A stretch of 64,000 nucleotides of DNA from Patescibacteria group bacterium (GCA_022868165.1 JALHYA010000004.1:83432-147431), one strand, 5' to 3'. Shown: positions 1,429-48,804, numbered from the stretch's first letter. Numbers and translations: made by a program. The notes: a model not told the origin generated them from the sequence alone.

Positions 1429-1431
1429 AGA

Positions 1432-2571: not shown

Positions 2572-4957
2572 AGATATGGGAACATGGATTGCATGGGCTC
2601 ATAGGCTTGCCGAAATAGGCCCCTGGAAATTTTACAGCGATGCTGTTTGGACTCAATACACTCCGGGATTTTTGTATTGGCTTTGGCTTTTAGGAAAGGC
2701 GGGGCTTGCGAATGCGCTTTCCATAAAATTGCCGGTCGTGATTGCGGAAGTTGCAACGGGGGTAATCATTTGGTCGGTACTTAGAAAGGTCGATGAAAAG
2801 TTCGCTTCCCTGGCTCTTTTATTTTATGCCTTAAATCCTGCAATTATTTTTGACGGCTCCGTTTGGGGACAGGTAGACGGGATTTTGGCGCTGTTTTTGT
2901 TCTTGAGTGTTTACTTTTTGACCTTCAAAGAAAAGCCAATTTTATCTGGTCTTTTTTGGGGACTTGCATTTCTGGTTAAACCCCAATCCTTTGCAATCTT
3001 GCCAGCCATTATCTTTATTTTGGCAATAAAGTTTTCGGCGAGGCGGGTTGTCAAATTTGTTCTATCCTCCGGAGCAACAATTTTTCTTTTGGGGCTTCCT
3101 TTCTTTCCACAAAATCCTATTTTCGGACTTGTCCAACTGGTTTTTGAGATGAGTTCCTATTATTCTTACACTTCTGTTTTTGCCTTTAATTTCTGGTCAA
3201 TTGTCGTAGGAATGTGGAAGTCGGATTCGATAATTTTTTTGGGAGTCCCCCTTTTCTTCTGGGGAATTTCTTTATACCTTGCATCCTTGGTATTGATATT
3301 TTTTGTTTTTAGAAAGAAAAGGGAAGTCGGGTATCTTTATTTGGTAACTGCACTTACCCTATTTGCATTTTTTCTTTTTCCGACCAGGGTTCACGAAAGA
3401 TACCTTCTTCCGATTTTTCCGTTTCTTTTAACCGCGGCAGGACTTCTTAAATCAAAAAAGCTTACTTGGGCGTTTATCGGAGTTTCCGTCTTGAGTCTTG
3501 CTAATCTTTACCACCCTTACGCCTATTACTCAAAGAATTACTTAGTAAGTAGCGGTCTTTTGCAATTTAGCGGAAATTTTGCTCCCTTTATCGGTGCGGC
3601 ATTTTTGGTTTTGTTTTTCGGTATGATATTTGATTGGAGATTGCCCGAAATAAAAATGAAATTTCCAAAATATTCCTCAAGGTTCTGGCTTTTTATAATT
3701 GTCGGCTTTGCACTGCTTACGAGAATTTTATTTTTGGGAAGTCCACAGAGCGAATATTTCGATGAGGTTTATCACGCCTTTACCGCAAGACAAATTCTTC
3801 ACGGGAACAAAATGGCTTGGGAATGGTGGAATGTTCCTCCCAAGGGTTTTGCCTATGAGTGGACCCACCCGCCATTGGCAAAACTCGGGATGGTTTTGGG
3901 AATGCTTATTTTTGGAGAAAACTCTTTCGGCTGGAGAATTCCCGGAGCGCTTTTGGGAGTGGGGAGTGTTTATCTTGTTTATTTGATTGCCAAAAAATTA
4001 TTCGACGATGAAAAAATTGCTCTTTTGTCGGCAGGAGTTTTTGCGCTTGATGGATTGCCGCTTGTGATGTCAAGAATAGGAATGAACGACAGTTATATTT
4101 TGTTTTTTGCCCTTGCCTCAATCTATCTCTTCATGGAACAAAAAAATCTTTTTTCGGCAATTGCTTTCGGACTTGCGCTTTCTTCCAAATGGTCGGCCCT
4201 TTGGGCGATACCAATCTTGGGACTTCTGTATTTGCAACGAAAAGATAACATCTTCCGCGGATTAAAATCCGCGGCTTTGTCCCTAAGGAAAGATGTTGAT
4301 ACAGCTTCAATTCATCCCCTCGACTTCGCTCGGGGTTTTCTTGAAGCTTTTAATAAATTCGAGAAAGGTTTACTCTGGTTTATTGTATTAGTTCCTGCGG
4401 TTTATCTGGCAATCTATGTACCATTCTTTTTGTCGGGACACGGATGGCCCACCTTTATCGAACTTCAAAAACAAATGTGGTGGTATCACACAAGGCTTAA
4501 GGCAACTCATCCTTATACATCTACATGGTGGGAATGGCCATTTCTCGTCCGTCCGATTTATTTGTATACAAGCGGTTACGCAAAGGGAGTTGTTGCAAAT
4601 ATTTATGCGATGGGAAATCCCGCGGTATTTTGGGGAGGCTTGGCTGCAGTAGTTTGGGGAATTTACTATGCATACGTAAATAAAATTAAAAGTCTCGGCC
4701 TGGTAATTTTTTCCTACTTGGTATTTTTTGTTCCTTGGGCGCTTTCTCCGAGAATAATGTTTCTCTATCACTATCTCCCGTCGATTCCTTTTTTGGCAAT
4801 TGCCACGGGATATTTTCTTAAAAGGACACCAAAAGCGATTATTCCCTTCTTCCTTATCGCAGGAATTTTGTTTATCTATTTCTTCCCGCACTGGACGGGA
4901 ATGACGATTCCGCAAAGTTTGGACTCTTTATACTATTGGTTCCCATCATGGCGGTGA
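2444..4957 (+). CDS. Large polytopic membrane glycosyltransferase: N-terminal GT-C/DUF2029-like module fused to a C-terminal PMT/ArnT-like (GT39/GT83) module
   Basis: 837 aa. The C-terminal half (FGSPQSEYFDEVYHAFTARQIL...WTHPPLAKLGMVLGMLIFGENSFGWRIPGALLG...) matches the dolichyl-phosphate-mannose/undecaprenyl-phosphate-sugar-dependent glycosyltransferase family. The N-terminal half is a second GT-C-like TM bundle. A start at ATG 2501 (MMFFLILL) is equally plausible. Confidence 0.6.
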   Translation: MSAILEIMSRIKNFFKNEFMMFFLILLTFAVKFVLSYLPSFDIDMGTWIAWAHRLAEIGPWKFYSDAVWTQYTPGFLYWLWLLGKAGLANALSIKLPVVIAEVATGVIIWSVLRKVDEKFASLALLFYALNPAIIFDGSVWGQVDGILALFLFLSVYFLTFKEKPILSGLFWGLAFLVKPQSFAILPAIIFILAIKFSARRVVKFVLSSGATIFLLGLPFFPQNPIFGLVQLVFEMSSYYSYTSVFAFNFWSIVVGMWKSDSIIFLGVPLFFWGISLYLASLVLIFFVFRKKREVGYLYLVTALTLFAFFLFPTRVHERYLLPIFPFLLTAAGLLKSKKLTWAFIGVSVLSLANLYHPYAYYSKNYLVSSGLLQFSGNFAPFIGAAFLVLFFGMIFDWRLPEIKMKFPKYSSRFWLFIIVGFALLTRILFLGSPQSEYFDEVYHAFTARQILHGNKMAWEWWNVPPKGFAYEWTHPPLAKLGMVLGMLIFGENSFGWRIPGALLGVGSVYLVYLIAKKLFDDEKIALLSAGVFALDGLPLVMSRIGMNDSYILFFALASIYLFMEQKNLFSAIAFGLALSSKWSALWAIPILGLLYLQRKDNIFRGLKSAALSLRKDVDTASIHPLDFARGFLEAFNKFEKGLLWFIVLVPAVYLAIYVPFFLSGHGWPTFIELQKQMWWYHTRLKATHPYTSTWWEWPFLVRPIYLYTSGYAKGVVANIYAMGNPAVFWGGLAAVVWGIYYAYVNKIKSLGLVIFSYLVFFVPWALSPRIMFLYHYLPSIPFLAIATGYFLKRTPKAIIPFFLIAGILFIYFFPHWTGMTIPQSLDSLYYWFPSWR

Positions 4958-4979: not shown

Positions 4980-5420
4980 TTAAAGCGCTAATACCGCGGA
5001 GACAATAAGGAGAAGAATTCCCGCTCCAATTCCTATGACTGTCGGTAAAGATGTTCCCGAGCTTGGAAGTTGAGGGGCGGGTGTAGGTGTTGGCGCCAAA
5101 GGAGTCGCTGTTGAAGCAGGAGTTGCGGTTGGTGTGGCGCTTGGTGTGGGAGTTGCGGTGCCCGAAGGCGTAGGTGTTGGAGTTCCGCTAGGAGTTTCAG
5201 TCGGTGTTGGTGTCGGCGTTGCCGCAGAAATTGTAAATGTCAAAGCACTGCAGGCAATAGGGGCAGCAGCCGCCGGCTTCGAAGTAGGAACATTAGGTGC
5301 AACAGTGGTCTGCCTTAGTTGGTAGAGTCTAATTGCCGTAAATATCGCAATACCTGCCAACCCGACCGTTGCTATCAGGATTATTACCGTTACTATTCTT
5401 TTTCTAAAGAAATCCCTCAT
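4980..5420 (-). CDS. Small bitopic surface protein: N-terminal signal-anchor, Pro/Thr-rich stalk, C-terminal hydrophobic segment after LPSSG
   Basis: MRDFFRKRIVTVIILIATVGLAGIAIF... then (TP)n-rich linker ... QLPSSGTSLPTVIGIGAGILLLIVSAVLAL. Last gene of the minus-strand operon 9752->4980. Confidence 0.5.
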   Translation of the reverse strand: MRDFFRKRIVTVIILIATVGLAGIAIFTAIRLYQLRQTTVAPNVPTSKPAAAAPIACSALTFTISAATPTPTPTETPSGTPTPTPSGTATPTPSATPTATPASTATPLAPTPTPAPQLPSSGTSLPTVIGIGAGILLLIVSAVLAL

Positions 5421-5440
5421 TTTTTATTTTTATTTACTCC

Positions 5441-5470
5441 AGCTTCTAATCTCTAACTTCCAACTTCCAA
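5441..5470. repeat. Copy of the dispersed intergenic motif (AGCTTCTAATCTCTAACTTCCAACTTCCAA) between two surface-protein genes
   Basis: Reverse complement GGAAGTTGGAAGTTAGAGATTAGAAGCT. Matches the copies at 17955-17980 and 20636-20680. Confidence 0.5.
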
Positions 5471-5471
5471 A

Positions 5472-6842
5472 CTAGAACCAACCTAAAACCGTATTGTGTA
5501 ATTGGGCTCCGACAGTAAAGCTTGAGACTCCTTCGGGAATCGTATATTCATCATAATATTCTTCCGTTCCTGGTTTTTTCTGGGTAACCTCGGACCTATC
5601 GACTCCGTTTATTTTAAATTTGGCTTTATCATTTGTGCCCGTTGTGGCGGTCCCGCCGATTGCGAACCTCACAATATCTCCGACTTTAAGAGTGGAAAGT
5701 TTATCGGCGGTTAATAGCGTCCAGCTGGAATCGAATGCTTGGACGGCCAGACACTGAGCGGATTCTTCTCCTCCCGGGGGAGGTGTTGGAGTTTCTGTTA
5801 TTGTTCCCCCTCCGGTTCCTGTACACTGATAACACCAGTTTGGAATTGTAGCGGTTCCCGCATTAACTATAGTTGCATTTTCGCATATTCGGTTGGCGGT
5901 CGGCGTTTCTCTGACTCCGCAAACTCCCTCGCAAGCCTCTTCCGCAGCATCACGATTGCTTCCTCCGGAGGTATATCCAGTCGGACAAAGTTGGGTAGTT
6001 GTGGTAGAAACACATTCATTTGCCCAACAGCGCTCTCCTGTTGCGCATGCTCTTCCGCAGGAACCGCAGTTGCGGCTGTCGTAGCGGGGGTCGACACAAC
6101 TTCCGTTGCATACGATTTGTCCTGTCTGACAGGTAGTAGTTGCCGTTGCAGTTGGACTGGGTGAGGCAACTCTAGGCAGACAATTGTTGGCAGACCAATA
6201 ACAATCAGACCTGGCTTGACAGACAGAAATACCCAGTCCCAGACAGTTGGGTTGCGCTGTAGACGTAGGTATTGGAGTGGCTGTGGCTGTTGGACAGCCC
6301 GCCCTGCACTCCGTGGCGCTGTTACCTCTACAAAGACAGTTATTATAGCAACTGCCGCTGTTACAATCGATACAACATCCAATATTTTGGCCAGCGGGGG
6401 AAACACATCCTCCACTACTGGTACCCTTAAACGTTTTATTGGCTAGAGTGCATGCTCCGCCGGTGGTACATGTTCCAGTTTGACCACTAACAGTACATGA
6501 CTGACCGGGCCCCGCGGCTTTTTCCCTTATATCCTGTTGTTGTTGCACAAGGACTACTCCTGCTCCCAGACCTCCCACCAAAACGAGGATTCCCAAAATT
6601 GTTGCGACCATACGGCGACTTACTCTGCCTTTCGGTTTTGATGGAGTGATTACGGGAGGAATTCCGAGTCCTTGTAAATCACCAACCGGGCCTGCTCCGC
6701 CGGTCGGTTCGGGAGGCGACGGGGGAACATCGGAATCCATCGACGGCAAAGTTGGAGGAGCAGGTTCGGTTGGAGGAGTTTCACCAAAGATAGGTGTGAC
6801 CGGGACTGGTTTTATTGCGTTCGGGTCAGAATTATCGGGCAT
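5472..6842 (-). CDS. Cysteine-rich extracellular protein with Pro-rich cytoplasmic N-tail and a single TM anchor
   Basis: About 110 aa Pro-rich N-terminus, TM segment RRMVATILGILVLVGGLGAGVVLVQQQQ, then an ectodomain of about 330 aa with about 45 Cys in CxxC / NCGSCG / CxxGxxC arrays (e.g. CQTGQIVCNGSCVDPRYDSRNCGSCGRAC). Overlaps the upstream gene by 11 nt. Confidence 0.5.
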   Translation of the reverse strand: MPDNSDPNAIKPVPVTPIFGETPPTEPAPPTLPSMDSDVPPSPPEPTGGAGPVGDLQGLGIPPVITPSKPKGRVSRRMVATILGILVLVGGLGAGVVLVQQQQDIREKAAGPGQSCTVSGQTGTCTTGGACTLANKTFKGTSSGGCVSPAGQNIGCCIDCNSGSCYNNCLCRGNSATECRAGCPTATATPIPTSTAQPNCLGLGISVCQARSDCYWSANNCLPRVASPSPTATATTTCQTGQIVCNGSCVDPRYDSRNCGSCGRACATGERCWANECVSTTTTQLCPTGYTSGGSNRDAAEEACEGVCGVRETPTANRICENATIVNAGTATIPNWCYQCTGTGGGTITETPTPPPGGEESAQCLAVQAFDSSWTLLTADKLSTLKVGDIVRFAIGGTATTGTNDKAKFKINGVDRSEVTQKKPGTEEYYDEYTIPEGVSSFTVGAQLHNTVLGWF

Positions 6843-8190
6843 ATTTGAAAATAAAGAAACTTAGGCCCAAAAAGCCTATACCCATCATAGAAAGAAGCAG
6901 AGTTGGAGTCAAGCTGCCAGTCTGAGGAATTCCTGAGGCAGTTGAGATTGGAGTAGTAGTTGGCGCAAGCGTCGGCGTTGCCGAGACGGTAGAAGTAGGA
7001 GTTGGAGTAATTATTGGCGTCGGAGTCGGCGTCGGAGTCGGGGAAGGTGTGGTCGATGCAGACGGAGTGGAAACGAAAGCCGGTCCTTCCGCTGCTTGAA
7101 CGACAAATGTTCTTGTTAAAGTCCTTAAGATTCCGGAAGCATCGGTCCAGCTGATGGTTATAGTGTGGCTTCCGGCAGGAAGATTGGATGGTGGATCCCA
7201 AACCCAGTTGCCGCTGGCATCGACAATTGCTGTTCCGGTCACTGCTTCCGATTGAACCGTGATTGTAAGTTTCGTTCTGGGCGGTCCTTCTCCAAAAAAT
7301 TCCGGCTTGGTGCTGGTAACAATTTCCCCGCTGGAAACGCTTTTTAGCGTGACCGTTTGCGCCGATGGGGTTGCGATTTGCGAAGGAACATTAAATCCGG
7401 AAGACGGGGTGGATTCGTTGGGAAGTCCGACGTTTGCCGAAGGAACTTCGCTTGAATTGGAAGGAGGAAGGCTTGTAAAATCATGGGTTTTCCCAATAGT
7501 CATGGCAGGTGCCGGCTTTGCGGATTGAGGATAAATTTGAGCGCTTGAGGTGTTGCCCAGTCCGGCATCAACCGATATTTCGACCAAGGTTTTTGTATCG
7601 TCTATCACAATGTAATTTGTAAGGTCCGCCGTCCTTGCGGCAGATATTGGAACTACCCAATTTCCGTTTTGGGAAGTAAATGTCGAAAGAAGACTTCCTC
7701 CACTTACCGTTACATAAACTAAAGCATTTTGCACAGGGTTTCCGTCGTCACCCAAAACAGTTCCTGAAATTGTGTCCGCTTGTGTTGAAGCGGCAAGGGA
7801 AGGACCGGTTGATGTTTGCCAAGGGGAGCCGCTATCGTCATAAACCGTTCCGCTTGAATTTATTTTGAAAAAAATTGTTTGTCCTGCCGAAAGACCGTTT
7901 ATGGTTACGCGATGTGTAATGTTGGTTCCCACCAGTTCGTCGTTCTCGTTTCTGGATATTGTGCCTTGGGAGGTTCCCCAAAAGACAAAGCTTTCCGTTT
8001 TAGTGTCTGTTACCCAAGAAACCGCAAGAGATGTATCGCTAATATTGGATATCTTTACGTTTTTGGGTGCGGTATCTCCGGTTGCTCCCAATTTGAAAAT
8101 TTGCCTATATTGCACCAAAAATACTCCTGCGGCGAGGCCGATTATTAAAATTATTACCCCGATTATTGTCGGAATTCTACTTGGTTTCAT
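6832..8190 (-). CDS. Sortase-anchored cell-surface protein (FN3-like, CarboxypepD_reg-like and Ig-like beta domains; C-terminal IPQTG sorting signal)
   Basis: N-terminal signal/anchor MKPSRIPTIIGVIILIIGLAAGVFLVQ. Beta-rich domains (DTSLAVSWVTDTKTESFVFWG; ISGTVLGDDGNPVQNALVYVTVSGG; TKLTITVQSEAVTGTAIVDASGNWVW). PT-rich stalk. C-terminus ...STASGIPQTGSLTPTLLLSMMGIGFLGLSFFIFKYAR, i.e. an LPXTG-type motif, hydrophobic span and basic tail. ATGA overlap with the upstream gene. Confidence 0.6.
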   Translation of the reverse strand: MKPSRIPTIIGVIILIIGLAAGVFLVQYRQIFKLGATGDTAPKNVKISNISDTSLAVSWVTDTKTESFVFWGTSQGTISRNENDELVGTNITHRVTINGLSAGQTIFFKINSSGTVYDDSGSPWQTSTGPSLAASTQADTISGTVLGDDGNPVQNALVYVTVSGGSLLSTFTSQNGNWVVPISAARTADLTNYIVIDDTKTLVEISVDAGLGNTSSAQIYPQSAKPAPAMTIGKTHDFTSLPPSNSSEVPSANVGLPNESTPSSGFNVPSQIATPSAQTVTLKSVSSGEIVTSTKPEFFGEGPPRTKLTITVQSEAVTGTAIVDASGNWVWDPPSNLPAGSHTITISWTDASGILRTLTRTFVVQAAEGPAFVSTPSASTTPSPTPTPTPTPIITPTPTSTVSATPTLAPTTTPISTASGIPQTGSLTPTLLLSMMGIGFLGLSFFIFKYAR

Positions 8191-8537
8191 GGTGTTGGTG
8201 TAGCGCTTGCCGTTGCTGTTGGTGTTGCACTGGGACTTGCGGAAGGAGTCGGGGTAATGGTTGGAGATGGGGTTGGAGTTGTAGTTGCGGACGGCGTTGC
8301 TCCCGTAATCTTGGTCCCCCCAATTTCACCTTCGGATAAAAATGTTCTTGATTGAATCTTGGAAAGGGAATCGGTGTCGAGAGTAGGAGTTAAGGCCTGC
8401 AGAATATCTTCAGGAACGCTAGGAGAAGGTTTGGTTGTAAATGCTCTATAAGCGGTGAAAAATACCCAAAAGACAAGCGTTATTGCGGTCAAAACTGCGA
8501 TTGTAACTAAACTTGGGACTCTAGATTTTTTCTTCAT
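8187..8537 (-). CDS. Small membrane-anchored Pro/Thr-rich protein
   Basis: MKKKSRVPSLVTIAVLTAITLVFWVFF anchor followed by a T/P/S/A-rich low-complexity tail. 3-nt gap from the PilO-like gene; ATGA overlap with the next gene. Confidence 0.45.
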   Translation of the reverse strand: MKKKSRVPSLVTIAVLTAITLVFWVFFTAYRAFTTKPSPSVPEDILQALTPTLDTDSLSKIQSRTFLSEGEIGGTKITGATPSATTTPTPSPTITPTPSASPSATPTATASATPTP

Positions 8538-8540
8538 GAT

Positions 8541-9194
8541 TTAATTAGGGTAATAAGGAACTCTCCCCGAAATTACCAGCACCAAAGTTTTTCCGCCTTG
8601 GGTTTTGGAAGAGCTTATATTAAACACATCAATCTTTATAGGCCTTCTTAGGTTTTCGATGTTTGTCATAAACGCAGTCAGAGAAGAATAGTCGCCCTCA
8701 ATACTTACCGAGAAGGAAACTTCTTTTGCTCCCTCCGGAAGGGGAGCAAAATCGCTTTGTTTTACGGCCTCTTGCGACTTGCCCACAAGTGTTACGTCGC
8801 CGATTGAAACCCCAAGAAGTTTTGCGGAGGTTTTTTTGGAGATTCCTTCTATTTGTCGGGCAAACGTATCCGGGCTCGGGTCCGTTGGTACCGCATCGGG
8901 GACTAATAAAATAGTTGTCGGGTTGGCGTTAAAAAGACCCTCGGCCGTCTGAATATCGTTAATTTTTTGATTCATCTGGCTTATGGTTTGTTCGCGGCTT
9001 TTAAGCTGATTAATCAAATCGATAATTGTGAGAAGCGTCGGTTTTATGGCAAAAACTACGAAAATCGAAATAGTTGCTGCGGAAAGCAATATCTCCAAAA
9101 ACATCTTTACATCCTGTTTTTGTTTATAGACATTAACGATGTTTAGGAAATAATCCCTGTAGCGAAGATATGCCCCACGCCAACCGAGTGCCAT
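8541..9194 (-). CDS. pilO: Type IV pilus assembly protein PilO-like
   Basis: N-terminal TM, coiled-coil region, C-terminal segment SFSVSIEGDYSSLTAFMTNIENLRRPIKIDVFNIS resembling the conserved PilO core (SLSGSYHDLATFVSGVSSLPRIV...). Sits directly downstream of the PilN-like gene (9194/9195). Confidence 0.6.
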   Translation of the reverse strand: MALGWRGAYLRYRDYFLNIVNVYKQKQDVKMFLEILLSAATISIFVVFAIKPTLLTIIDLINQLKSREQTISQMNQKINDIQTAEGLFNANPTTILLVPDAVPTDPSPDTFARQIEGISKKTSAKLLGVSIGDVTLVGKSQEAVKQSDFAPLPEGAKEVSFSVSIEGDYSSLTAFMTNIENLRRPIKIDVFNISSSKTQGGKTLVLVISGRVPYYPN

Positions 9195-9752
9195 TTAAAG
9201 TTGTACTCCTTTCGGCCCCAAGATTATTTTGAGATTAAATTCAATCAAAGAACTTTCGCTTTGTGTTTCGGCCTGAGTAAGGGTTACGCTTTTGAAACTT
9301 TTTTCCGAAGAGAGATTGGTAATAAATTGCCCTACTTCTACCTCGGTTGGAGCGACTCCTTTAATTTGGATTGTGTCGTTGGATAGGGTAACGGCCGTAA
9401 GAATTACACTACTGGGTTGGTATTGGGTTATCGTGTTAAGGATATCGGTTGCGGCAGGCTGTGAGGAAAGTGAAGAAAATATTTTGAGCTGTTTTTGGAT
9501 TAAGCGGAACTGTTTTTCAAAATCGCTGGTTGCGGCAAGAACCGCCTGTTTTGTTTTAATCTCGTCATCCAAATCGCTTCTTCTTGAGTCAAGCCAAAAG
9601 CGGGACAAGAAAGCAATCATGACAATCATTTCGGTTGCGATAACGAGAATTCTAAATGTGGAAAGAAGCCACTTAAAAATTCGTCCGAAAGTTGATGCTT
9701 CGAACTCCTCCTGTGGTAATAAATTTATCTGGCGCTGTTTTTGGGCAGCCAT
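9195..9752 (-). CDS. pilN: Type IV pilus assembly protein PilN-like
   Basis: Begins MAAQKQRQINLLPQEEFE... with the hallmark PilN INLLP motif, followed by a single TM (FRILVIATEMIVMIAFL) and a periplasmic alpha/beta domain. Confidence 0.65.
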   Translation of the reverse strand: MAAQKQRQINLLPQEEFEASTFGRIFKWLLSTFRILVIATEMIVMIAFLSRFWLDSRRSDLDDEIKTKQAVLAATSDFEKQFRLIQKQLKIFSSLSSQPAATDILNTITQYQPSSVILTAVTLSNDTIQIKGVAPTEVEVGQFITNLSSEKSFKSVTLTQAETQSESSLIEFNLKIILGPKGVQL

Positions 9753-28481: not shown

Positions 28482-29105
28482 ATGAAAACAATAGGCGAGG
28501 CTATCAAAAATGCCCGGTCGAAGAAAAGATATTCTTTGGCAAAAGTCGAGGACGAGACAAAGATAAAAAAGGAATTTGTAGAGGCAATCGAAAATGAAAA
28601 GTGGGAGCAACTCCCCGAATATCCGGTTCTGGTTGGATTTGTCAAGAATTTGAGCAGATTTTTAGGGTTGGAAGAACGAAGCACGGTCGCGCTTTTGCGC
28701 CGGGATTATCCTCCGAAGAAGCTTTCTATAAATCCCAAACCGGATGTCTCCAGTAAATTTTCGTGGAGCCCAAAACTGACATTTTTTGTGGGAATAGCGG
28801 TTGTACTGGTTGCAATTTTTGGGTATTTGGCATTCCAGTATTACAAGTTTATTACTCCACCCCGCCTCTCGGTAAATGAACCGCAGCAAAATGAGGTAGT
28901 CAAAGTCCGAGATTTCAAGGTTTTTGGCACGACCGATCCTGACGCAACGGTGAGAGTAAATAATCAGCCTGCCTTGGTAAATGACGACGGAAGCTTTACT
29001 GTTGATATTGCAATTTATGAAGGAACAAACGAAATTGTGATAAGTGCAACTTCTCGCTCTGGAAAAACAACCACAATACATCGTAATATAAAGCCTGAAC
29101 TGTAA
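28482..29105 (+). CDS. rodZ: RodZ-like protein (N-terminal XRE-type HTH, single TM, C-terminal beta domain)
   Basis: MKTIGEAIKNARSKKRYSLAKVEDETKIKKEFVEAIENEKWEQLP (HTH), then TM LTFFVGIAVVLVAIFGYLAF, then extracytoplasmic domain. Confidence 0.5.
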   Translation: MKTIGEAIKNARSKKRYSLAKVEDETKIKKEFVEAIENEKWEQLPEYPVLVGFVKNLSRFLGLEERSTVALLRRDYPPKKLSINPKPDVSSKFSWSPKLTFFVGIAVVLVAIFGYLAFQYYKFITPPRLSVNEPQQNEVVKVRDFKVFGTTDPDATVRVNNQPALVNDDGSFTVDIAIYEGTNEIVISATSRSGKTTTIHRNIKPEL

Positions 29106-29362
29106 TGGACGGAGTTCAAACACTTTTAGTAATCGTAGTAGTTTCTTTAACCCTTCTTCTTTTGGTGGTCGGAATTCAGGTTTTGATGATAATTATCGAT
29201 TTGAGGAAAGCAATAAAGCGGCTAAATAGTATTTTGGAGGATGCAATTTTGGGGGGAGGTTTAATCCGGCCCGAAAAACTTACAGGCGTAGTTGAAATTT
29301 TCAGAAAAAATAAAAAGATGGAAACCTTCGGCCAGGAATCTTCTCCTCACACTCCCAAATGA
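29105..29362 (+). CDS. Small hypothetical membrane protein (one TM)
   Basis: TAATG overlap with the rodZ-like stop. TM LLVIVVVSLTLLLLVVGIQVLMIIIDL. No homolog recognised. Confidence 0.35.
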   Translation: MDGVQTLLVIVVVSLTLLLLVVGIQVLMIIIDLRKAIKRLNSILEDAILGGGLIRPEKLTGVVEIFRKNKKMETFGQESSPHTPK

Positions 29363-31205: not shown

Positions 31206-33377
31206 ATGGATTTAAAGAGCATTTTAGGTGGCCGCGAAGAAAAAAGCAGAGAGCTCTACTGGGCTTTGGTAATTGAACCCTCTTGGATTCAAGCTGGTAT
31301 TTGGGAAATTGTTGCCGGTAAAGCAAACGTAACTTCAATCAGTCCCTCCGCGGCTTGGGAAACCGAAGAGGAAATGATTGCCGCTGCGGATACCGCCCTA
31401 TCGGCTTCTGTTCAAAGCCTTCCCGAAGAAGCCCCCGAGCCTTCAAAGACGGTTTTTGGCGTTGCCTCCCTATGGGTTGCCAATGGACAGATTAAAGATG
31501 AATATCTTTCAAAAATCAGGAAAATCTGTGCGGAACTTTCTCTCCAACCTGTTGGTTTTGTCGTAATTCCGGAAGCGGTTGCCCATCTTGTCAAATCCGA
31601 AGAATCCACCCCCCTAAACGGGATAGTTGTAGGCATCGGGGCTGAAGAACTGGAGCTTTCCCTCTTTAGATTGGGAAACCTGATAGGAACAACGCAGGTT
31701 TCAAGAAGTGTTTCTTTGGCAGAGGATGTTACCGAAGGGCTTACCCGCTTTAACCAAACGGAGCCTCTTCCTTCAAGAATTTTGATTTATGACGGTAAAG
31801 AAGGAGAGTTGGAGGACGAAAGGCAAAGCCTGATAAAAACAAATTGGGAAGATTTCGAGAAGCTTAAATTTTTGCATACTCCAAAAGTTGAAGTCTTGGA
31901 GCCGGATAGAAAGGTTCTGGCAACATCATTGGCTGGAGCATCGGAGATTGCTAATGTTTCTGCGGTCGAAAGCCCGAAAGTAGAACGCTTTACCGGGGAG
32001 GACGAAACCCAGGAAGACGTAGAAAACGTAAAGGCTCCGGAAAAAGAAGTTACCGCAGAGGAGCTGGGGTTTGTGGTTGGACAGGATGTCAGAACAAACC
32101 AAGAAGTGCCGCAGCCAGTTGCCCCAACTTTACCCCCGAAGGAAATTCCTCGTCCTGCCGCAAGCGTTCGTCATCTCAAGCCGCCCGCCATATTAGGTTT
32201 TTTTAAGAAAATCCATTTGCCGAAATTCCGGTTGCCGATTTTGGGAACTCAGCCATTTATTGTCGCCGGAATTTTCCTTGGTCTTCTTTTTATTGCAGGT
32301 TTTATCTATTGGTGGACCGTTCCAACTGCCGACGTAACAATCTTTGTTTCTCCCAAGAAATTGAATGAGAATGTTTCGATGAAAATTTCCACCAGTGTGA
32401 CCAATCCGGATATAAACGCCAAGGTTCTTCCCGGCAAAGTTTTGACGACTGATGTTTCGGGAGATAAGACAATCCAAACGACCGGCACAAAGGTGATTGG
32501 GGACAAGGCAAAGGGCTCGGTGAATATAAGAAACGGAACTGCATCTGCCTTGGATCTTCCGGCCGGAACCGTAATTTACGGAACAAACGATCTTCAGTAC
32601 ACCCTGGATCAAGAAGCTTCGGTTTCGGCACAAATTTCCCCGGGTACCCCCGGCACAGCGACCGTTAACGTGACTGCTTCGGATATCGGCACTCAATATA
32701 ATTTGGATAAGGACGTGTCTTTTAAGGTTTCAAATTATCCGCAGTCAGTGGTCGATGCCGTTTCGACCGCAACATTCGCCGGGGGTTCGAGCCGTGATAT
32801 TTCTTCGGTTTCCGAAGACGACCAAAAAAATTTGGAGAAAACGCTTACCGATGAACTTTTGGATAAGGCTAAAGATAAACTGTCCAAATTGGTTGACCAA
32901 GGAATGTATTTTGTTGGCGACGGCCTTGTTTTAACAGAAGTATCGAAAGATTTCAGCAACAAAGTTGGAGACGAGGCCTCAAATCTTAAACTTTCGCTTT
33001 CCCTTAGTGTCCAGGGTTTGGAGGTAGATAAAAAAGCATATGTGGAATTGGCCAAATCCGCTCTTTCCGCGAAAGCTCCCTCGGGGTTTGTTTTAAGGGA
33101 AGACCAAATAAAAGGAAATTTCGATTTCAAGAAAAAAGACGGCAACACTTATTTTTTCGACATAGCATTTAGCGCCAACTTGCTTCCACAAATAAACACG
33201 GCGGATATCACAAAGAACATTGTTGGGAGGCAGCAATCCGTTGCGGAAACCTATCTTACCAGTATTCCCGGCTTCTCGCGGGTTGATATTAATCTAAAAC
33301 CCCGTCTGCCGGGAAGACTCGGAAGCCTTCCGAGAATAGAAAAGCATATTCATATCACTATTGACTCCGAACGATGA
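31206..33377 (+). CDS. Large bitopic membrane protein: cytoplasmic domain with faint actin-like (PilM/FtsA-like, degenerate) features, one TM, large extracytoplasmic beta-rich domain
   Basis: About 340-aa N-terminal domain (ELYWALVIEPSWIQAGIWEIV...; VVGIGAEELELSLFRLGNLIGTT... reminiscent of actin-fold phosphate motifs but degenerate), TM FIVAGIFLGLLFIAGFIYWW, about 350-aa exported domain. 4-nt overlap with the downstream sortase gene. Confidence 0.4.
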   Translation: MDLKSILGGREEKSRELYWALVIEPSWIQAGIWEIVAGKANVTSISPSAAWETEEEMIAAADTALSASVQSLPEEAPEPSKTVFGVASLWVANGQIKDEYLSKIRKICAELSLQPVGFVVIPEAVAHLVKSEESTPLNGIVVGIGAEELELSLFRLGNLIGTTQVSRSVSLAEDVTEGLTRFNQTEPLPSRILIYDGKEGELEDERQSLIKTNWEDFEKLKFLHTPKVEVLEPDRKVLATSLAGASEIANVSAVESPKVERFTGEDETQEDVENVKAPEKEVTAEELGFVVGQDVRTNQEVPQPVAPTLPPKEIPRPAASVRHLKPPAILGFFKKIHLPKFRLPILGTQPFIVAGIFLGLLFIAGFIYWWTVPTADVTIFVSPKKLNENVSMKISTSVTNPDINAKVLPGKVLTTDVSGDKTIQTTGTKVIGDKAKGSVNIRNGTASALDLPAGTVIYGTNDLQYTLDQEASVSAQISPGTPGTATVNVTASDIGTQYNLDKDVSFKVSNYPQSVVDAVSTATFAGGSSRDISSVSEDDQKNLEKTLTDELLDKAKDKLSKLVDQGMYFVGDGLVLTEVSKDFSNKVGDEASNLKLSLSLSVQGLEVDKKAYVELAKSALSAKAPSGFVLREDQIKGNFDFKKKDGNTYFFDIAFSANLLPQINTADITKNIVGRQQSVAETYLTSIPGFSRVDINLKPRLPGRLGSLPRIEKHIHITIDSER

Positions 33378-34063
33378 AGAAAAAACTTCTTTCAAGAATT
33401 TTTGCGGGGGTATTGGGCATCTTCGGCTTGGCAATTTTAATTGCCATTATTGTTCCGCTTGCGAATTATCAAAGAATTTCTTCGCAGAAGTACCCGAAAC
33501 TTCTAAGTCCGATTCCGGATAAGGGTGGCTCTACCCTTGGGGAGGAAAGCGATTTAACTAAAGCCTCGAACTGGTTTGTTGGTGGGGCCAAAAGCGGAGA
33601 TTTTACCTCATCAAGTGTTTCTTTTTATACGATTTCAATTCCTAAACTAAAAATCGATTCGGCCTCTGTGGCCTTTGGAGGAGAAGATTTGTCCAAAAGT
33701 CTAATCCATTATCCGGGTACCGCGCTCCCTGGGCAAAAAGGCAATGCCGTAATTTTCGGCCACTCCGTTCTTCCTTTGTTTTTTGACCCTAAAGATTATT
33801 TAAAGATTTTTTCAACGCTGCCGAGCCTAAACAAGGGAGATGAAATTTTGGTTAATTATGACGGTGTTTCCTATAAATACCGCGTCGAAACAATGCAGGA
33901 AATTTTGCCGACCGATTTGCAGGTTTTGGATCAGGACAAAAGCGATTCATTTTTAACGTTGGTTACCTGCGTCCCGCCGGGAGACCCCAGAAAACCATTT
34001 AGACTAATCGTTCGTGCTAGAATAGTTCCACTTGCGCAGACAAATGCGAATACTTGGAATTGA
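33374..34063 (+). CDS. Sortase family transpeptidase (membrane-anchored)
   Basis: N-terminal TM. Catalytic His in AVIFGHS, TLxTC motif in FLTLVTC, conserved Arg in LIVRARI. Confidence 0.8.
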   Translation: MKKKLLSRIFAGVLGIFGLAILIAIIVPLANYQRISSQKYPKLLSPIPDKGGSTLGEESDLTKASNWFVGGAKSGDFTSSSVSFYTISIPKLKIDSASVAFGGEDLSKSLIHYPGTALPGQKGNAVIFGHSVLPLFFDPKDYLKIFSTLPSLNKGDEILVNYDGVSYKYRVETMQEILPTDLQVLDQDKSDSFLTLVTCVPPGDPRKPFRLIVRARIVPLAQTNANTWN

Positions 34064-34439
34064 TTACGGAAGAAAAAAAATAGGCCTTGCTTTTGCGGAC
34101 TCAAAATTGGCTGACCCTTTAGCTGTTGTTCACGGAGAGACAACCGAGGAGCTGATCGAAGACCTCAAAAAGATTATTATAAAGAATCAGGTTGAAAAGA
34201 TTGTGGTCGGGATTTCGGAAAACGAAATGGGGGAAGAGTCGAAGAGATTTAGTCTGAGTCTAAAAGAGAAATTAAAAATACCGGTAGAGACTTTCGATGA
34301 AACTCTAACTACCCAGGAGGCCCAAAAATTGGCCATCGAGGCCGGCATAAAAAGACAAAAAAGAAAAGAGCTGGAGGATGCATACGCAGCCGCGCTTATG
34401 TTACAATCCTACTTAGACGAGAAGGAGATAAATGTTTAA
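34044..34439 (+). CDS. ruvX: Putative pre-16S rRNA nuclease / Holliday junction resolvase-like YqgF (RuvX)
   Basis: MRILGIDYGRKKIGLAFAD...KIVVGISEN...AAALMLQSYLD. RNase H-like fold signature. Confidence 0.8.
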   Translation: MRILGIDYGRKKIGLAFADSKLADPLAVVHGETTEELIEDLKKIIIKNQVEKIVVGISENEMGEESKRFSLSLKEKLKIPVETFDETLTTQEAQKLAIEAGIKRQKRKELEDAYAAALMLQSYLDEKEINV

Positions 34440-34632
34440 GAACGTAATTGCACCGATTCAGGCTTGGCTTCTTTCCCAAAAACGCTGCGTTGGTTGCGGA
34501 AAAGAGCTCGCCGATGCCAAAAGAGGTAAGGCAAAGGGAGGCGAAGAAAAAGTCACTTGTTTCTGCGGCCGTATTTATATTCACGACACAAAAACCGACA
34601 AATACAGGCGCGCTCTCTTGGAAGAAGTTTAA
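34432..34632 (+). CDS. Small Cys4 zinc-ribbon protein, hypothetical
   Basis: 66 aa. CVGC...(19)...CFC. 8-nt overlap with the ruvX end. Confidence 0.35.
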   Translation: MFKNVIAPIQAWLLSQKRCVGCGKELADAKRGKAKGGEEKVTCFCGRIYIHDTKTDKYRRALLEEV

Positions 34633-35754: not shown

Positions 35755-35782
35755 TTGACACGAGCGTGCTGTTTTGTATAAT
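35755..35782 (+). promoter_or_regulatory. Strong consensus sigma-70 promoter for the rpoB-rpoC operon (TTGACA-N16-TATAAT with upstream TG)
   Basis: TTGACA 35755-35760; TGTATAAT 35775-35782. Confidence 0.5.
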
Positions 35783-35811
35783 CCACCCTAGGCGTACGTA
35801 AGTACGTTGTT

Positions 35812-35842
35812 CCCGCTTCATTCTGCGGGGGTTTTGTGTTTG
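35812..35842 (+). promoter_or_regulatory. Leader hairpin CCCGC-TTCATTCT-GCGGG followed by GGUUUUGUGUUUG, ending 4 nt before the rpoB ATG
   Basis: Seen in sequence. Attenuator-like structure. No Shine-Dalgarno sequence before ATG 35847. Confidence 0.4.
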
Positions 35843-47372: not shown

Positions 47373-47681
47373 ATGCCTACTGGTAGACTTCGCGTCAAGC
47401 TTAAAAGCTACGACCACCGCGTCATTGACGAAGCGGCTCTGAAGATATTGGATTCAGTTTTGGCTACCGGGGCAAAGATTATTGGTCCGACCCCTCTTCC
47501 TACCAAAAGAACTCTCATGGCTGTCAAAGAATCTCCTTTTACGGATAAAGATGCCCAGGAACATTACGAAATATTGGTCCACAAGCGCCTGATTGACATT
47601 CTGGACCCTTCCGAACGCACAATCGACGCCCTTAGCAATCTCGACCTCCCTGCGGGGGTGTCAATCGAGATAAAGATGTAA
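47373..47681 (+). CDS. rpsJ: 30S ribosomal protein S10
   Basis: ...RLRVKLKSYDHRVIDEAALKILDSVLATGAKIIGPTPLPTKR...HYEILVHKRLIDIL.... Confidence 0.9.
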   Translation: MPTGRLRVKLKSYDHRVIDEAALKILDSVLATGAKIIGPTPLPTKRTLMAVKESPFTDKDAQEHYEILVHKRLIDILDPSERTIDALSNLDLPAGVSIEIKM

Positions 47682-48804
47682 GTTTTGTTTTCGTAAGCAG
47701 GTAAACGTTTATTCCCCACAAAATTACGGCTCCATAAAATTGGTTAGACAAAAGCAATATTTTCGGAAAACCTAAATATAGAGAAGGATTTTTGAAATTC
47801 CAGCTAACCAGTAAATAGGCGACTCCTAGTAAAATCCACAACCAAATTTTCTTTATAGTCAAAGCGTATCTACAAAGAACGACGAACGGAAAGATTAGCC
47901 AGACAAAGTGATGTTGCCAGGAGAGTGAATCAACCAAAAGAAGAGAGATAAGGAAAAGTGAAAACAGTAGTTGTTTGTTATTTTTCTTAAAAGCCAAGAA
48001 GGAGCTTGACCCAACAACCAAGATAGAAATCAAAATTGTGGCGAGCCCTCGAATAGTAGGGTTCTGTGTAAGCCTAGAAATAAAACCAGAGATGCCTTGG
48101 TTATAATAAACTTCCCTGCCACCCATTCCCAAAAGGGGAGGAAAAACCTTTTCTATCCAGTACTGATAAAGTGCAATATTTGAGACTAAGATTGAAAGAA
48201 GAAAGCCTCCGATTAGGGTGCCAAGAATATACAAAATTACTCTCCGTTCGTGCTCCAGCAGGAAAAATAAAAGAAGAAATCCAAATATTGGTTTGGAGAT
48301 AATACTCAACCCTAATAGTATTCCGGCAATTTTGTAACTTCTTCTAAGATAAAAATAGAAACCCGAAAGAAGAATGAAAAGCGAAATTGTGTTTACCTGC
48401 CCCATGCCTAGAGTATATTTTGTTGGGAAGGCTGTGAGAGCCAAGAATAGAACAAGTAGAAAATAATGCCATGGAATTTTGTCGAAAGTGATTTTTAGAG
48501 AAATGAGGGCTGTTCCCACAATTGAAGCGAATGACAGTAAAATGAATATAGCCTGAGCGTATCGATAAAAAATTAGGGACAGAGGAATATAAAATACTAG
48601 TGTTATGGGAGGCTGGAGTAACTGATAGACAAGATCAGGGTTACTGTATAGATTTTTCCTGGCCAGGAAATCTTTTGAGGCCATCCAGAAAACAGAGAAG
48701 TCTGGAGCGGTTGTAGAAACTATTTTGAGAATTGACCAGCAAATCCAGGCAAAGCTGAACAAAAATAGAACTACAACTGCTAATTTCAGCAATCTCCTGC
48801 TCAT
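47632..48804 (-). CDS. Polytopic membrane protein, GT-C/DUF2029-like glycosyltransferase, inserted antisense between rpsJ and rplC
   Basis: 390 aa, about 11 TM. ...SYKIAGILLGLSIISKPIFGFLLLFFLLE... resembles the GT-C modules at 1432-4957. Its 3' end overlaps the rpsJ 3' end convergently by 50 nt. Confidence 0.55.
   Translation of the reverse strand: MSRRLLKLAVVVLFLFSFAWICWSILKIVSTTAPDFSVFWMASKDFLARKNLYSNPDLVYQLLQPPITLVFYIPLSLIFYRYAQAIFILLSFASIVGTALISLKITFDKIPWHYFLLVLFLALTAFPTKYTLGMGQVNTISLFILLSGFYFYLRRSYKIAGILLGLSIISKPIFGFLLLFFLLEHERRVILYILGTLIGGFLLSILVSNIALYQYWIEKVFPPLLGMGGREVYYNQGISGFISRLTQNPTIRGLATILISILVVGSSSFLAFKKNNKQLLFSLFLISLLLVDSLSWQHHFVWLIFPFVVLCRYALTIKKIWLWILLGVAYLLVSWNFKNPSLYLGFPKILLLSNQFYGAVILWGINVYLLTKTKLTSLSRLTPPQGGRDC

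Follow-up and report, generated by a model that had tools for sequence, protein, structure and literature searches.

In a 64,000-nucleotide stretch of the genome of a Patescibacteria group bacterium (GCA_022868165.1, JALHYA010000004.1:83432-147431; hereafter the window), the gene directly upstream of a sortase gene codes for a lineage-specific transmembrane connector of the Microgenomates, which we here call X. In this protein, a cytoplasmic domain with a predicted actin fold and a degenerate nucleotide site is joined through a disordered linker and a single transmembrane (TM) helix to an ectodomain displayed outside the cell (Table 1). By analogy, X might represent a new variant of the transmembrane connectors of the GspL and PilM-PilN type. 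The explanation that we tentatively favor, with a probability of roughly 40%, is that X is a connector whose degenerate actin-fold module helps sortase-dependent surface anchoring; it is from synteny that we infer a functional link between X and the sortase, an interaction between the two, and the direction of any coupling.

Table 1. Positions of X, the sortase gene, and the pilN-pilO operon genes in the window
Feature	Position (nt)	Strand	Description	Basis
Gene X	31206..33377	+	723-aa bitopic (N-in/C-out) membrane protein; founding member of its family	ORF
Minimal ASKHA/actin-fold domain, cytoplasmic (predicted)	31257..31970	+	aa 18-255	
Disordered cytoplasmic linker, acidic then basic	31971..32240	+	aa 256-345; pLDDT 45-69	
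Linker motif ELGFVVGQDV	32061..32090	+	G288, F289, and D294 invariant in Woesebacteria	
Single TM helix	32244..32312	+	aa ~347-369	Hydropathy scan
Extracytoplasmic domain	32316..33374	+	aa 371-723; beta-rich N-terminal half, then long helix and alpha/beta units	
Baseplate_J/gp47/GlxA-type beta-barrel module	32505..32789	+	aa 434-528; ~95 aa	
ATGA stop/start overlap, X/sortase gene	33374..33377	+	4 nt	Read from sequence
Sortase gene	33374..34063	+	229 aa	ORF and Pfam
Sortase N-terminal signal-anchor TM	33398-33454	+	aa 9-27	
Sortase catalytic domain	33632-34024	+	aa 87-217	
pilN (9195-9752) and pilO (8541-9194)	8541..9752	-	First operon genes; pilN with N-terminal INLLP	Pfam
Candidate sortase substrate 1	6832..8190	-	452-aa fn3/Ig surface protein; Pro/Thr-rich stalk, IPQTG, TM, and KYAR	
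Candidate sortase substrate 2	4980..5420	-	146 aa, Pro/Thr-rich; ends in LPSSG and TM	

Domain architecture of X

The N-terminal domain of X retrieved no match in Pfam, NCBIfam, or the PDB sequences, whether the single sequence or the family profile was used (in the PDB profile search, up to E<=10); its actin fold came to light by structure prediction alone. The AF2 model, with pLDDT values of >90 over residues 18 to 255, has the two RNase-H-like bbbababa halves (1A and 2A) around a cleft that define the ASKHA fold, and Foldseek searches with it recover FtsA and PilM at E values of about 1e-8. An actin-like domain of the PilM/FtsA kind had been suspected in a preliminary description of this DNA, which named structure prediction as the check, and on this point the model bears it out. 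The structural scores for Ppx/GppA and Hsp70 are nearly equal to that for PilM; hence, the likeness to PilM is unspecific. DSSP assignments on the model indicate that the 1B, 1C, and 2B inserts are all missing, and the stretch between beta3 and alpha1 of subdomain 1 comprises only 8 residues (aa 46 to 53), leaving no room for 1C or 1B.

The phosphate-1 (DxGxxxxK) and phosphate-2 (DxGGGTxD) loops of ASKHA domains, with their catalytic Asp residues, are not found in X. When the equivalent positions are taken from the hairpins of the model, as opposed to a residue-level superposition, they read E-P-G-W for phosphate-1 and G-V-G-x-E-N-L-E for phosphate-2 in Woesebacteria, and G/S/A/T and R/Q/G/N in a distant clade of the family (~34% identity in the N-terminal domain). 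The canonical Asp is therefore gone in both groups, as the preliminary description had held in stating that the catalytic residues are replaced. The residues that are invariant across the family lie outside the phosphate loops (W33, R167-S168, D174, E177-G178, R181, H224, G244, and E247). Judging from the model, the domain is probably a degenerate, inactive pseudo-ATPase that has lost the canonical residues for ATP hydrolysis, and it would most likely serve as a protein-binding or switch module, being neither an enzyme nor a former of filaments.

The cytoplasmic part had previously been described as some 340 residues; this extent holds, but it consists of about 240 folded residues and a disordered linker of about 90 residues and is not a single domain. 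The linker has a mean pairwise identity of 0.28, against 0.65 for the N-terminal domain. Its motif ELGFVVGQDV is absent from the distant clade, in which the core pattern GFxxGxD occurs in 3 of 38 members. The 25 residues preceding the TM helix include six K/R and no D/E, which predicts an N-in/C-out orientation; hydropathy and this positive-inside count agree on the one TM segment, cytoplasmic N-terminal part, and exported C-terminal part that had been proposed, and a hydropathy scan recovers the one-TM layout in 120 homologues. X likewise has no sorting signal at its own C terminus, again in line with what had been noted.

The ectodomain (model pLDDT, 89.7) is non-enzymatic and centered on a barrel of the Baseplate-J/GlxA type but is not a whole baseplate wedge protein. 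Pfam PF04865 matches it at 28.4 bits (GA, 21.1), and then only over model positions 22 to 110 of 255; the PHROG baseplate wedge family phrog_6 matches at an E value of 4.6e-6, and the GlxA barrel (PF21110) matches the same barrel stretch in homologues of X. Comparison of its fold with those of the baseplate wedge and the GlxA barrel aligns about 130 of the 353 residues with a large rmsd. The conserved residues are mostly G, A, P, or N, and the ectodomain contains no Cys. The module differs from the Baseplate J/gp47/T4 gp6-type wedge and from the GlxA barrel in that a membrane protein carries it on the cell exterior, and, while X exceeds the gathering score of PF04865, it has neither the full wedge architecture nor a contractile-tail context. 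The barrel had not been foreseen in the preliminary description. We also considered a PilN-like origin for the alpha/beta-rich C-terminal half of the ectodomain and rejected it at the sequence level, as hhalign comparison of the X profile with a profile of 47 PilN sequences yielded nothing beyond a coincidence over 5 residues, NLLP[Q/E], at a probability of 0.5%.

Gene neighborhood, sortase, and candidate substrates

Full-length homologues of X number at least 796, with identities of 47 to 97%, and the family of its N-terminal domain comprises 1,308 clusters at 50% identity with a single architecture. Weaker relatives of this domain, with E values between 1e-10 and 1e-30, number about 1,000. 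All named members belong to Microgenomates lineages (Woese-, Curtiss-, and Beckwithbacteria), and X is present in every Microgenomates genome sampled (about 90). In databases, the family is labeled “hypothetical” or, misleadingly, “baseplate J/gp47 family protein.”

The product of the downstream gene matches the Pfam Sortase model (PF04203) at E=6.5e-26 over 124 of 125 positions and retains the catalytic motifs IFGHS (His130), TLVTC (Cys199), and VRAR (Arg214); it had been reported as a sortase with an intact His/Cys/Arg set and as the only one in the window, and indeed no second sortase was found among the scanned window ORFs of >=150 aa. The generic sortase_fam model of NCBIfam accepts it, and none of the NCBIfam class models, with cutoffs of 140 to 166, is reached (class C, 59.1 bits; E, 51.3; D, 45 to 47; F, 28.8; A and B, unmatched). 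Sortases of classes C, E, and D are its nearest matches among PDB structures; the C-terminal TM segment known from class C is absent. The His-Cys-Arg residues and the full-length Pfam match are common to it and the class A, E, and C sortases, the N-terminal membrane anchor to it and classes A and E, and its candidate substrates, as with known sortases, carry a [I/L/V]P-x-x-G motif. What distinguishes it from the known classes is its genetic pairing with an actin-fold membrane protein: our literature search found no sortase class described as being so paired, and we know of no sortase system with a cytoplasmic actin-fold partner. In the literature (PMC6744442), a CPR sortase family is described as almost universal in Microgenomates and of scattered occurrence in other groups.

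X and the sortase gene are embedded in a conserved gene order, FtsK-RodZ-AlaRS-X-Srt-RuvX-MltG-RpoB, which is syntenic as a whole block across the clade and in which FtsK, a RodZ-like protein, and MltG/YceG occur alongside AlaRS, RuvX, and RpoB/C. Both ORFs and the 4-nt ATGA overlap between them are as first described. Of the translational coupling read from it, the overlap itself is real but is nothing special in this gene string: from FtsK through a 66-aa gene after RuvX, neighboring genes either overlap or are separated by 6 nt at every junction, which makes the ATGA overlap weak evidence of a link. The same -4 overlap recurs in 14 of 77 related loci, and in 57 of the 77 the two genes overlap or lie <=30 nt apart. 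A scan for promoters and terminators bounding an X-sortase operon gave counts equal to those of shuffled controls, with none setting the pair apart; its sole strong site lies upstream of rpoB. Base composition is flat across the region of X.

The sortase gene follows X directly, at a distance of <=150 nt, in 74 of 77 Woesebacteria/Microgenomates loci, and it does so directly in all six loci of the distant clade; overall, X and the sortase gene are adjacent in about 80 of 83 loci. The flanks of the distant-clade loci are rearranged, with the sortase-RuvX junction broken in three of the six and extra genes between RodZ and AlaRS. The adjacency of AlaRS and X is as conserved as that of X and the sortase, and two genomes have unrelated genes between X and the sortase, coding for a 1,440-aa cytoplasmic-looking protein and a short-chain dehydrogenase. 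In mirror-tree comparisons, the partial correlation with the sortase is 0.25 for the ectodomain of X and 0.31 for RodZ (56 loci), and it is 0.00 for the N-terminal domain of X; that between the ectodomain and RodZ is 0.27. Since the value for the ectodomain and sortase is no higher than that for RodZ and sortase, this test of co-evolution is not specific.

Elsewhere in the window, pilN (Pfam, 44.7 bits) and pilO (23.4 bits, barely over the cutoff) have no adjoining pilM, an arrangement also seen in three other genomes (four loci), and the scan of window ORFs detected no pilB, pilC, or pilT. The motif (I/V)NLLP is kept in 118 of 120 PilN orthologues. The IPQTG protein that had been placed beside this pair lies directly downstream of both genes and has IPQTG followed by a hydrophobic stretch and KYAR at its C terminus. 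It had been supposed to be the sole sorting-signal protein in the window, but the LPSSG protein is a second candidate. Orthologues of the former have VPITG or PVSG, and those of the latter LPVAG or LPQSG, in each case with a TM segment. Both candidate substrates are possibly linked to X. IPQTG is a typical motif of the pilin substrates of class C sortases. We considered the IPQTG protein as a polymerized pilin and rejected this, as it shows no YPKN-type pilin motif and no CnaA/CnaB domain and matches only fn3, Ig, and CarboxypepD_reg; by its sequence, it looks like a wall-anchored adhesin as opposed to a pilus shaft.

Known connectors and alternative readings

Like X, GspL/EpsL and PilM-PilN (as a pair or as fusions) combine a cytoplasmic ASKHA domain, one TM segment, and an extracytoplasmic alpha/beta domain. 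The degenerate actin-like domain, single TM helix, and ectodomain of X correspond to those of GspL as a resemblance of architecture, and the nucleotide site of GspL is degenerate too. X differs from GspL and PilM in having no 1C-like subdomain, in matching no T2SSL or PilM profile of Pfam or NCBIfam, and in its gene context, which consists of sortase and housekeeping genes and not of a secretion ATPase or pilins; no T2SS genes that would supply the GspE/GspM context were found in the window. Profile comparison finds no similarity between its ectodomain and PilN, from which the ectodomain also differs in its Baseplate-J/GlxA barrel. FtsA, for its part, has the SHS2 1C and the 2B subdomains and the canonical ATP-site Asp residues, all missing in X, and is held at the membrane by a C-terminal amphipathic helix, whereas X is held by a true TM helix that leads into an ectodomain of 350 residues.

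The preliminary description had offered X as the PilM-like partner that PilN/PilO lack, and in its extended form this reading has the N-terminal domain binding the INLLP motif, with X, the sortase, and the [I/L]PxxG proteins acting as one assembly system. PilM is among the top structural matches of the domain, pilN-pilO stands without an adjacent pilM in this and the three other genomes, the near-invariance of (I/V)NLLP among PilN orthologues implies a partner, and the operon contains two candidate substrates for the sortase to which X is coupled. Yet in the solved PilM:PilN structures (PDB 2ych and 5eou), the INLLP peptide of PilN sits in the 1A/1C cleft, half of which is made by 1C, and the DSSP analysis finds no 1C in X. 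None of the PilM, GspL, and FtsA models of Pfam and NCBIfam matches X at E<0.1; X lies about 21.5 kb from pilN, in a separate conserved block (the loci are about 25 kb apart); and Ppx/GppA and Hsp70 score almost as high as PilM. Moreover, a canonical PilM family has been reported as widespread in the CPR (PMC6744442), and a member may be encoded outside the window. Neither the subdomains nor the profiles thus support the identification with PilM, and we regard a PilM-type role as quite unlikely. Slightly less likely still is a single, so far undescribed Microgenomates machine for surface fibres or adhesins that would unite X, the sortase, PilN and PilO without a PilM, and the two [I/L]P-x-x-G proteins of their operon.

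Other readings dispense with PilN/PilO. Public annotation implies that X is the remnant of a baseplate J/gp47 gene from a prophage or tailocin, and both the Pfam score above the gathering threshold and the PHROG wedge match could be read in this way. Against it, the match is confined to the ~95-aa barrel, a module that matches the GlxA barrel as well; the protein exposes this barrel on the outer side of the membrane and has an actin-fold domain joined to it; inheritance of the gene, within a housekeeping block, has been vertical; the window ORF scan found no other genes of phages or contractile systems nearby; and base composition is flat. With no phage neighbors and no compositional anomaly, we rejected a prophage origin, to which we give next to no credence. 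A more serious contender makes X a membrane-anchored FtsA-like factor in division or wall growth, acting with FtsK, RodZ, and MltG, the adjacency to the sortase being incidental. The presence of these three genes in the conserved block and the residual covariation of the ectodomain with RodZ, about the same as with the sortase, agree with such a role. The 1C subdomain of FtsA is the site for downstream divisome proteins, and 2B is the site for the FtsZ tail; X has neither, and it has a TM helix and large ectodomain in place of the amphipathic helix. Most genes of the block have informational housekeeping functions (AlaRS, RuvX, and RpoB/C), so little can be read from the neighborhood, and in the rearranged genomes X has kept its place beside the sortase rather than that near RodZ or MltG; we consider a division role unlikely. 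X might, finally, be an independent envelope protein, such as a wall or S-layer tether or a receptor, caught in a frozen syntenic string and with no tie to the sortase, PilN/PilO, or division. Synteny of the entire block, the tight packing of all its genes, the nonspecific co-evolution signal, and the toleration of unrelated insertions between X and the sortase all accord with this. On the other hand, X and the sortase remain contiguous at ~34% identity despite broken junctions nearby, and their restriction to a lineage is common to both. The alaS-ruvX-mltG cluster is widespread and known in Firmicutes, and X and the sortase look like a two-gene insertion into that arrangement. An independent protein also appears improbable to us. 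The Pam pilus of CPR bacteria (a 2026 preprint) was considered as an explanation and discarded, being a chaperone-mediated donor-strand system unrelated to the sortase or X.

A possible role in surface anchoring

Returning to the connector reading that we favor, X would be coexpressed with an N-terminally anchored, housekeeping-type sortase, and the ectodomains of both proteins would be exposed together on the outer side of the membrane. There, X might position, scaffold, or gate the sortase-dependent attachment of surface proteins with [I/L/V]P-x-x-G motifs. Wall anchoring could in this way be coupled to a signal from the cytoplasm, by analogy with GspL or PilM-PilN, through which a partner in the cytoplasm is linked to an assembly site outside the membrane.

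Recognition of X as a connector with a degenerate FtsA/PilM-like module corrects the annotation of its family and adds a minimal, insert-free member to the repertoire of actin-fold domains. Were the link to PilN/PilO true, it would point to a new kind of surface-assembly system, in which sortase-catalyzed assembly would take place on a membrane platform formed by a PilM-like pseudo-ATPase with a fused baseplate-type ectodomain. Such a system would be without precedent in connecting a sortase pathway to an actin-fold component of the cytoplasm, and it would combine alignment parts of type IV pili with the sortase chemistry of Gram-positive bacteria. The ultra-small bacteria of the Microgenomates, as yet uncultured, presumably spend their lives attached to other cells, so the envelope and its appendages, which are almost unstudied, are of central importance to them; in these organisms X offers a testable candidate for the coupling of sortase-dependent surface display to the cytoplasm.

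Architecture of X and its cytoplasmic actin-fold domain

X, the membrane protein encoded directly upstream of the sortase, has a single hydrophobic helix (aa ~347-369), and since the 25 residues preceding it contain six K/R and no D/E, it is predicted to be oriented N-in/C-out. The ~340 cytoplasmic aa attributed to it in the preliminary description are indeed cytoplasmic, but they comprise ~240 folded residues (the N-domain, aa 18-255) and a ~90-residue disordered linker. In keeping with that description, no C-terminal sorting signal was found in X. The N-domain went unrecognized by the sequence libraries searched. An AlphaFold2 model built on a 72-sequence alignment (block pLDDT 80-97, mostly >90) presents it as two consecutive bbbababa units, the ASKHA signature. 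In a fold search, the matches following the top one are P. aeruginosa PilM (14.5), E. coli FtsA (14.1), and T. thermophilus PilM (13.7), with Hsp70s (~13.7) and crenactin and other actins (~13) further down, and Foldseek recovers FtsA, Ppx/GppA, and PilM at E values of ~1e-8 with probability 1.00. Hence, the actin-like fold earlier suspected from sequence is borne out, and the closeness of the modeled domain to FtsA/PilM rather than to other ASKHA members is modest. The loops at the usual 1B/1C and 2B insertion sites are short (the beta3-alpha1 gap comprises residues 46-53 only), and the domain is, as modeled, a bare 1A+2A core.

The Woesebacteria sequences have W-A-L-V-I-E24-P-G-W at the phosphate-1 hairpin, versus the canonical D-x-G-T/S, and G143-V-G-x-E-N-L-E150 at phosphate-2, versus D-x-G-G-G-T-x-D; a distant clade, ~34% identical to X in the N-domain and including Beckwithbacteria, shows G/S/A/T, R/Q/G/N, and A/T at the corresponding positions. 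All of these assignments follow the hairpins of the model instead of a residue-level superposition. The acidic residues of catalysis are thus neither canonical nor conserved, in line with the replacement of catalytic residues noted in the preliminary description. Within X, constraint is strongest in the N-domain (mean pairwise identity 0.65, compared with 0.50-0.58 in the ectodomain and 0.28 in the linker), with family-wide invariants at W33, D62, F84, W90, G117-F-V, R167-S168, D174, E177-G178, R181, F222, H224, P226, G244, and E247. We read it as a likely pseudo-ATPase that would serve as an interaction or switch module and may still bind a ligand. The otherwise disordered linker contains a motif, [E/D][D/E]-L-G-F-V-V-G-x-D-V, in which G288, F289, and D294 are invariant across 72 Woesebacteria-type sequences; it is found in just 3 of 38 distant-clade members and may be a lineage-specific docking peptide.

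The ectodomain (aa 371-723; model pLDDT 89.7) includes a stretch, aa 434-528, that is matched by Pfam Baseplate_J at 28.4 bits (GA 21.1), over model positions 22-110 of 255 only, and by PHROGs as "baseplate wedge subunit," while in some homologs PF21110 ("GlxA beta barrel domain") matches the equivalent stretch instead. On account of these partial matches, the public annotation as a "baseplate J/gp47 family protein" comes down to one shared ~95-aa barrel module, and X is not a wedge or baseplate protein. Despite that module, it is extremely improbable that X is a phage remnant; base composition is flat and phage genes are absent around it. The C-terminal half of the ectodomain consists of a long helix and then beta-beta-alpha-beta-beta units, and it has no profile similarity to PilN in hhalign. 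Across clades, conservation falls mostly on Gly, Ala, Pro, and Asn, and the ectodomain is free of Cys, which points to a role in structure or binding rather than catalysis. A near-invariant NLLP[Q/E] pentapeptide in this extracellular part equals the core of the INLLPQ at the cytoplasmic N-terminus of PilN. Hhalign matched the two families nowhere else and gave this match a probability of 0.5%. The membrane separates the pentapeptide from the actin-fold domain, and the identity is probably due to chance.

When the N-domain was searched exhaustively with phmmer, its 50%-identity clusters numbered 1308 at E <=1e-3, 1018 at E <=1e-10, and 320 at E <=1e-30. The homologs of X are named as Woesebacteria, Curtissbacteria, Beckwithbacteria, Microgenomates, or "Patescibacteria group," which places the window in a Microgenomates (CPR) genome. 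Among the best 150 matches, the full-length members are all 670-810 aa and a single architecture was seen; members below that length resemble fragments cut off at contig ends. The literature searched gave no account of the X family, nor of a sortase paired with an actin-fold protein.

The sortase and the conserved gene string

The protein encoded downstream of X is a bona fide sortase belonging to no defined class. Its PF04203 match (E=6.5e-26) spans 124 of the 125 model positions, and it has the catalytic residues previously recognized, His130 (IFGHS), Cys199 (TLVTC), and Arg214 (VRAR), behind an N-terminal signal-anchor helix (aa 9-27); a C-terminal TM segment is lacking. It is also the sole sortase in the window among the scanned ORFs of >=150 aa. 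In NCBIfam, only the generic sortase model is above its cut-off: the class C (59 bits), E (51), D (45-47), and F (29) models fall below the class cut-offs of 140-166, and those for classes A and B give no match. The closest solved structures are a mixture, with enzymes from classes C, E, and D (E values of 1e-10 to 1e-8). The class, from which a motif preference was to be read, predicts none. The [I/V/L]P-x-[T/S/A]-G motifs of the local candidate substrates are compatible with a sortase, without proving one.

Features discussed in the text (window coordinates)
Feature	Position	Strand	Remarks
LCP (LytR_cpsA_psr), 837-aa PMT-family protein O-mannosyltransferase, GT87 glycosyltransferase	388-4957 and 47632-48804		
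pilN/pilO/candidate-substrate operon	4980-9752	-	tightly packed, overlapping stops/starts
LPSSG protein	4980-5420	-	LPSSG and TM segment at end
IPQTG protein	6832-8190	-	directly downstream of pilN and pilO
RodZ-like protein, then 85-aa TM protein	28482-29362		
X	31206-33377	+	723-aa ORF
Linker motif of X	32061-32090		aa 286-295
NLLP[Q/E] of X	33177-33191		aa 658-662
Sortase	33374-34063	+	229-aa ORF
66-aa protein	34432-34632		between RuvX and MltG; overlaps RuvX stop by 8 nt
Sigma-70 consensus	35755-35782		TTGACA-16-TATAAT (12/12), upstream of rpoB
GC-rich hairpin and T-tract	35809-35832		3' of sigma-70 site, inside rpoB leader

The two genes lie in a co-directional housekeeping string coding for FtsK, a RodZ-like protein, the 85-aa TM protein, AlaRS, X, the sortase, RuvX, a 66-aa Cys-rich protein, MltG/YceG, RpoB, and RpoC. 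The 4-nt overlap between X and the sortase is real (an ATGA stop/start) but unremarkable: from FtsK through the small gene that follows RuvX, all neighboring genes either overlap or are 6 nt apart. Across 80 species-level genomes, the order from FtsK to RpoB is almost invariant; in 74 of 77 loci, no more than 150 nt separate the X stop from the sortase start, and in 57 of the 77 the two genes overlap or lie <=30 nt apart. AlaRS, X, and the sortase are contiguous in all six distant-clade loci, where additional genes lie between RodZ and AlaRS and where a NUDIX, PspC, or copper-ATPase cluster splits the sortase from RuvX in three. The alaS-ruvX-mltG arrangement is widespread, as known from Firmicutes, and X plus the sortase looks like a two-gene unit set inside it. 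Consistent with the apparent distribution of X, the CPR sortase family is reported to occur almost throughout Microgenomates and to be patchy elsewhere (Méheust et al., PMC6744442).

That X is an unrelated envelope protein caught in a frozen gene string seems unlikely to us. The adjacency calls for caution: AlaRS-X is as strongly conserved as X-sortase, the whole block is tightly packed, and no promoter or terminator sets the pair apart in the 10 kb scanned. In two genomes, unrelated genes intervene between X and the sortase. Mirror-tree partial correlations with the sortase are 0.25 for the X ectodomain and 0.00 for its N-domain, RodZ scoring no lower. A functional link between X and the sortase, for which synteny is the sole evidence, is plausible.

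Several other features of this region deserve mention. The protein between X and the sortase in one Woesebacteria genome (locus L068, 8219-12541) is 1440 aa long, apparently cytoplasmic, and helix-rich. In the mirror-tree test, residual co-variation with the sortase is highest for RodZ (0.31). The RodZ-like protein combines an HTH_25 domain in the cytoplasm with a TM helix and an ectodomain of Glucodextran_B/Ig-like type, and its gene and that of the 85-aa TM protein are kept upstream of AlaRS at almost every related locus. The 66-aa protein, kept in most of the related loci, has a zinc-ribbon-like CxxC...CxC spacing and no Pfam match. The 10 kb scanned contain no strong promoter-like site other than the perfect sigma-70 consensus before rpoB, and the hairpin following that consensus could be a leader attenuator.

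The pilN-pilO operon and the proposed role of X

The operon encodes, in order, PilN (with INLLP), PilO, a 116-aa TM/Pro-Thr-rich protein, the 452-aa IPQTG protein with fn3/Ig domains, a 456-aa Cys-rich protein with a weak Stig1-like match, and a 146-aa Pro/Thr-rich protein whose LPSSG is kept as LPVAG or LPQSG in orthologs. The IPQTG protein is thus real but, contrary to the preliminary description, not the only one with a candidate sorting signal. It is unusual in its own right for a PilN/PilO pair to share an operon with candidate sortase substrates. Genes for LCP and PMT flank the operon here, as does PMT in locus L081 and PMT plus LCP in L083/L084, suggesting that the Pro/Thr-rich stalks of the candidate substrates are O-glycosylated.

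X had been proposed as the missing PilM-like partner of this pair. The operon has no pilM, pilus ATPase, platform, or pilin genes, and its arrangement recurs at four loci (L081-L084) in three other genomes, where MurJ and S20 lie upstream and pilM is again absent from the neighborhood. Further, PilN keeps (I/V)NLLP, a PilM-binding-type N-terminus, in 118 of 120 orthologs, and two candidate sortase substrates are encoded beside it while X pairs with the sortase. Against this, the X model has no 1C subdomain, which forms the PilN-peptide groove in the solved PilM:PilN complexes (2ych, 5eou); X has no sequence-family tie to PilM or GspL; and X and pilN-pilO belong to different conserved blocks. 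Moreover, canonical PilM is reported as a widespread family of CPR that many genomes encode together with pilB, pilC, pilN, and pilO (PMC6744442). We therefore consider a PilM surrogate quite improbable. An FtsA-like division or elongation factor is also unlikely, if somewhat less so; X fell outside FtsA, as it did PilM and GspL, in the membership tests.

It is highly probable that X is structurally a transmembrane connector, in which a flexible linker and a single TM helix connect an FtsA/PilM-like cytoplasmic module with a degenerate nucleotide site to an ectodomain that is non-enzymatic and lies on the same membrane face as the catalytic domain of the sortase. We propose, with a probability of about 0.4, that X positions, scaffolds, or gates the step in which [I/L/V]PxxG surface proteins are anchored by the sortase, and that it would thereby work like a connector of the GspL or PilM-PilN type. 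While the biology of X is what we infer, the useful outcome is solid: an actin-fold assignment, a corrected annotation of X, and its pairing with a sortase across the lineage.
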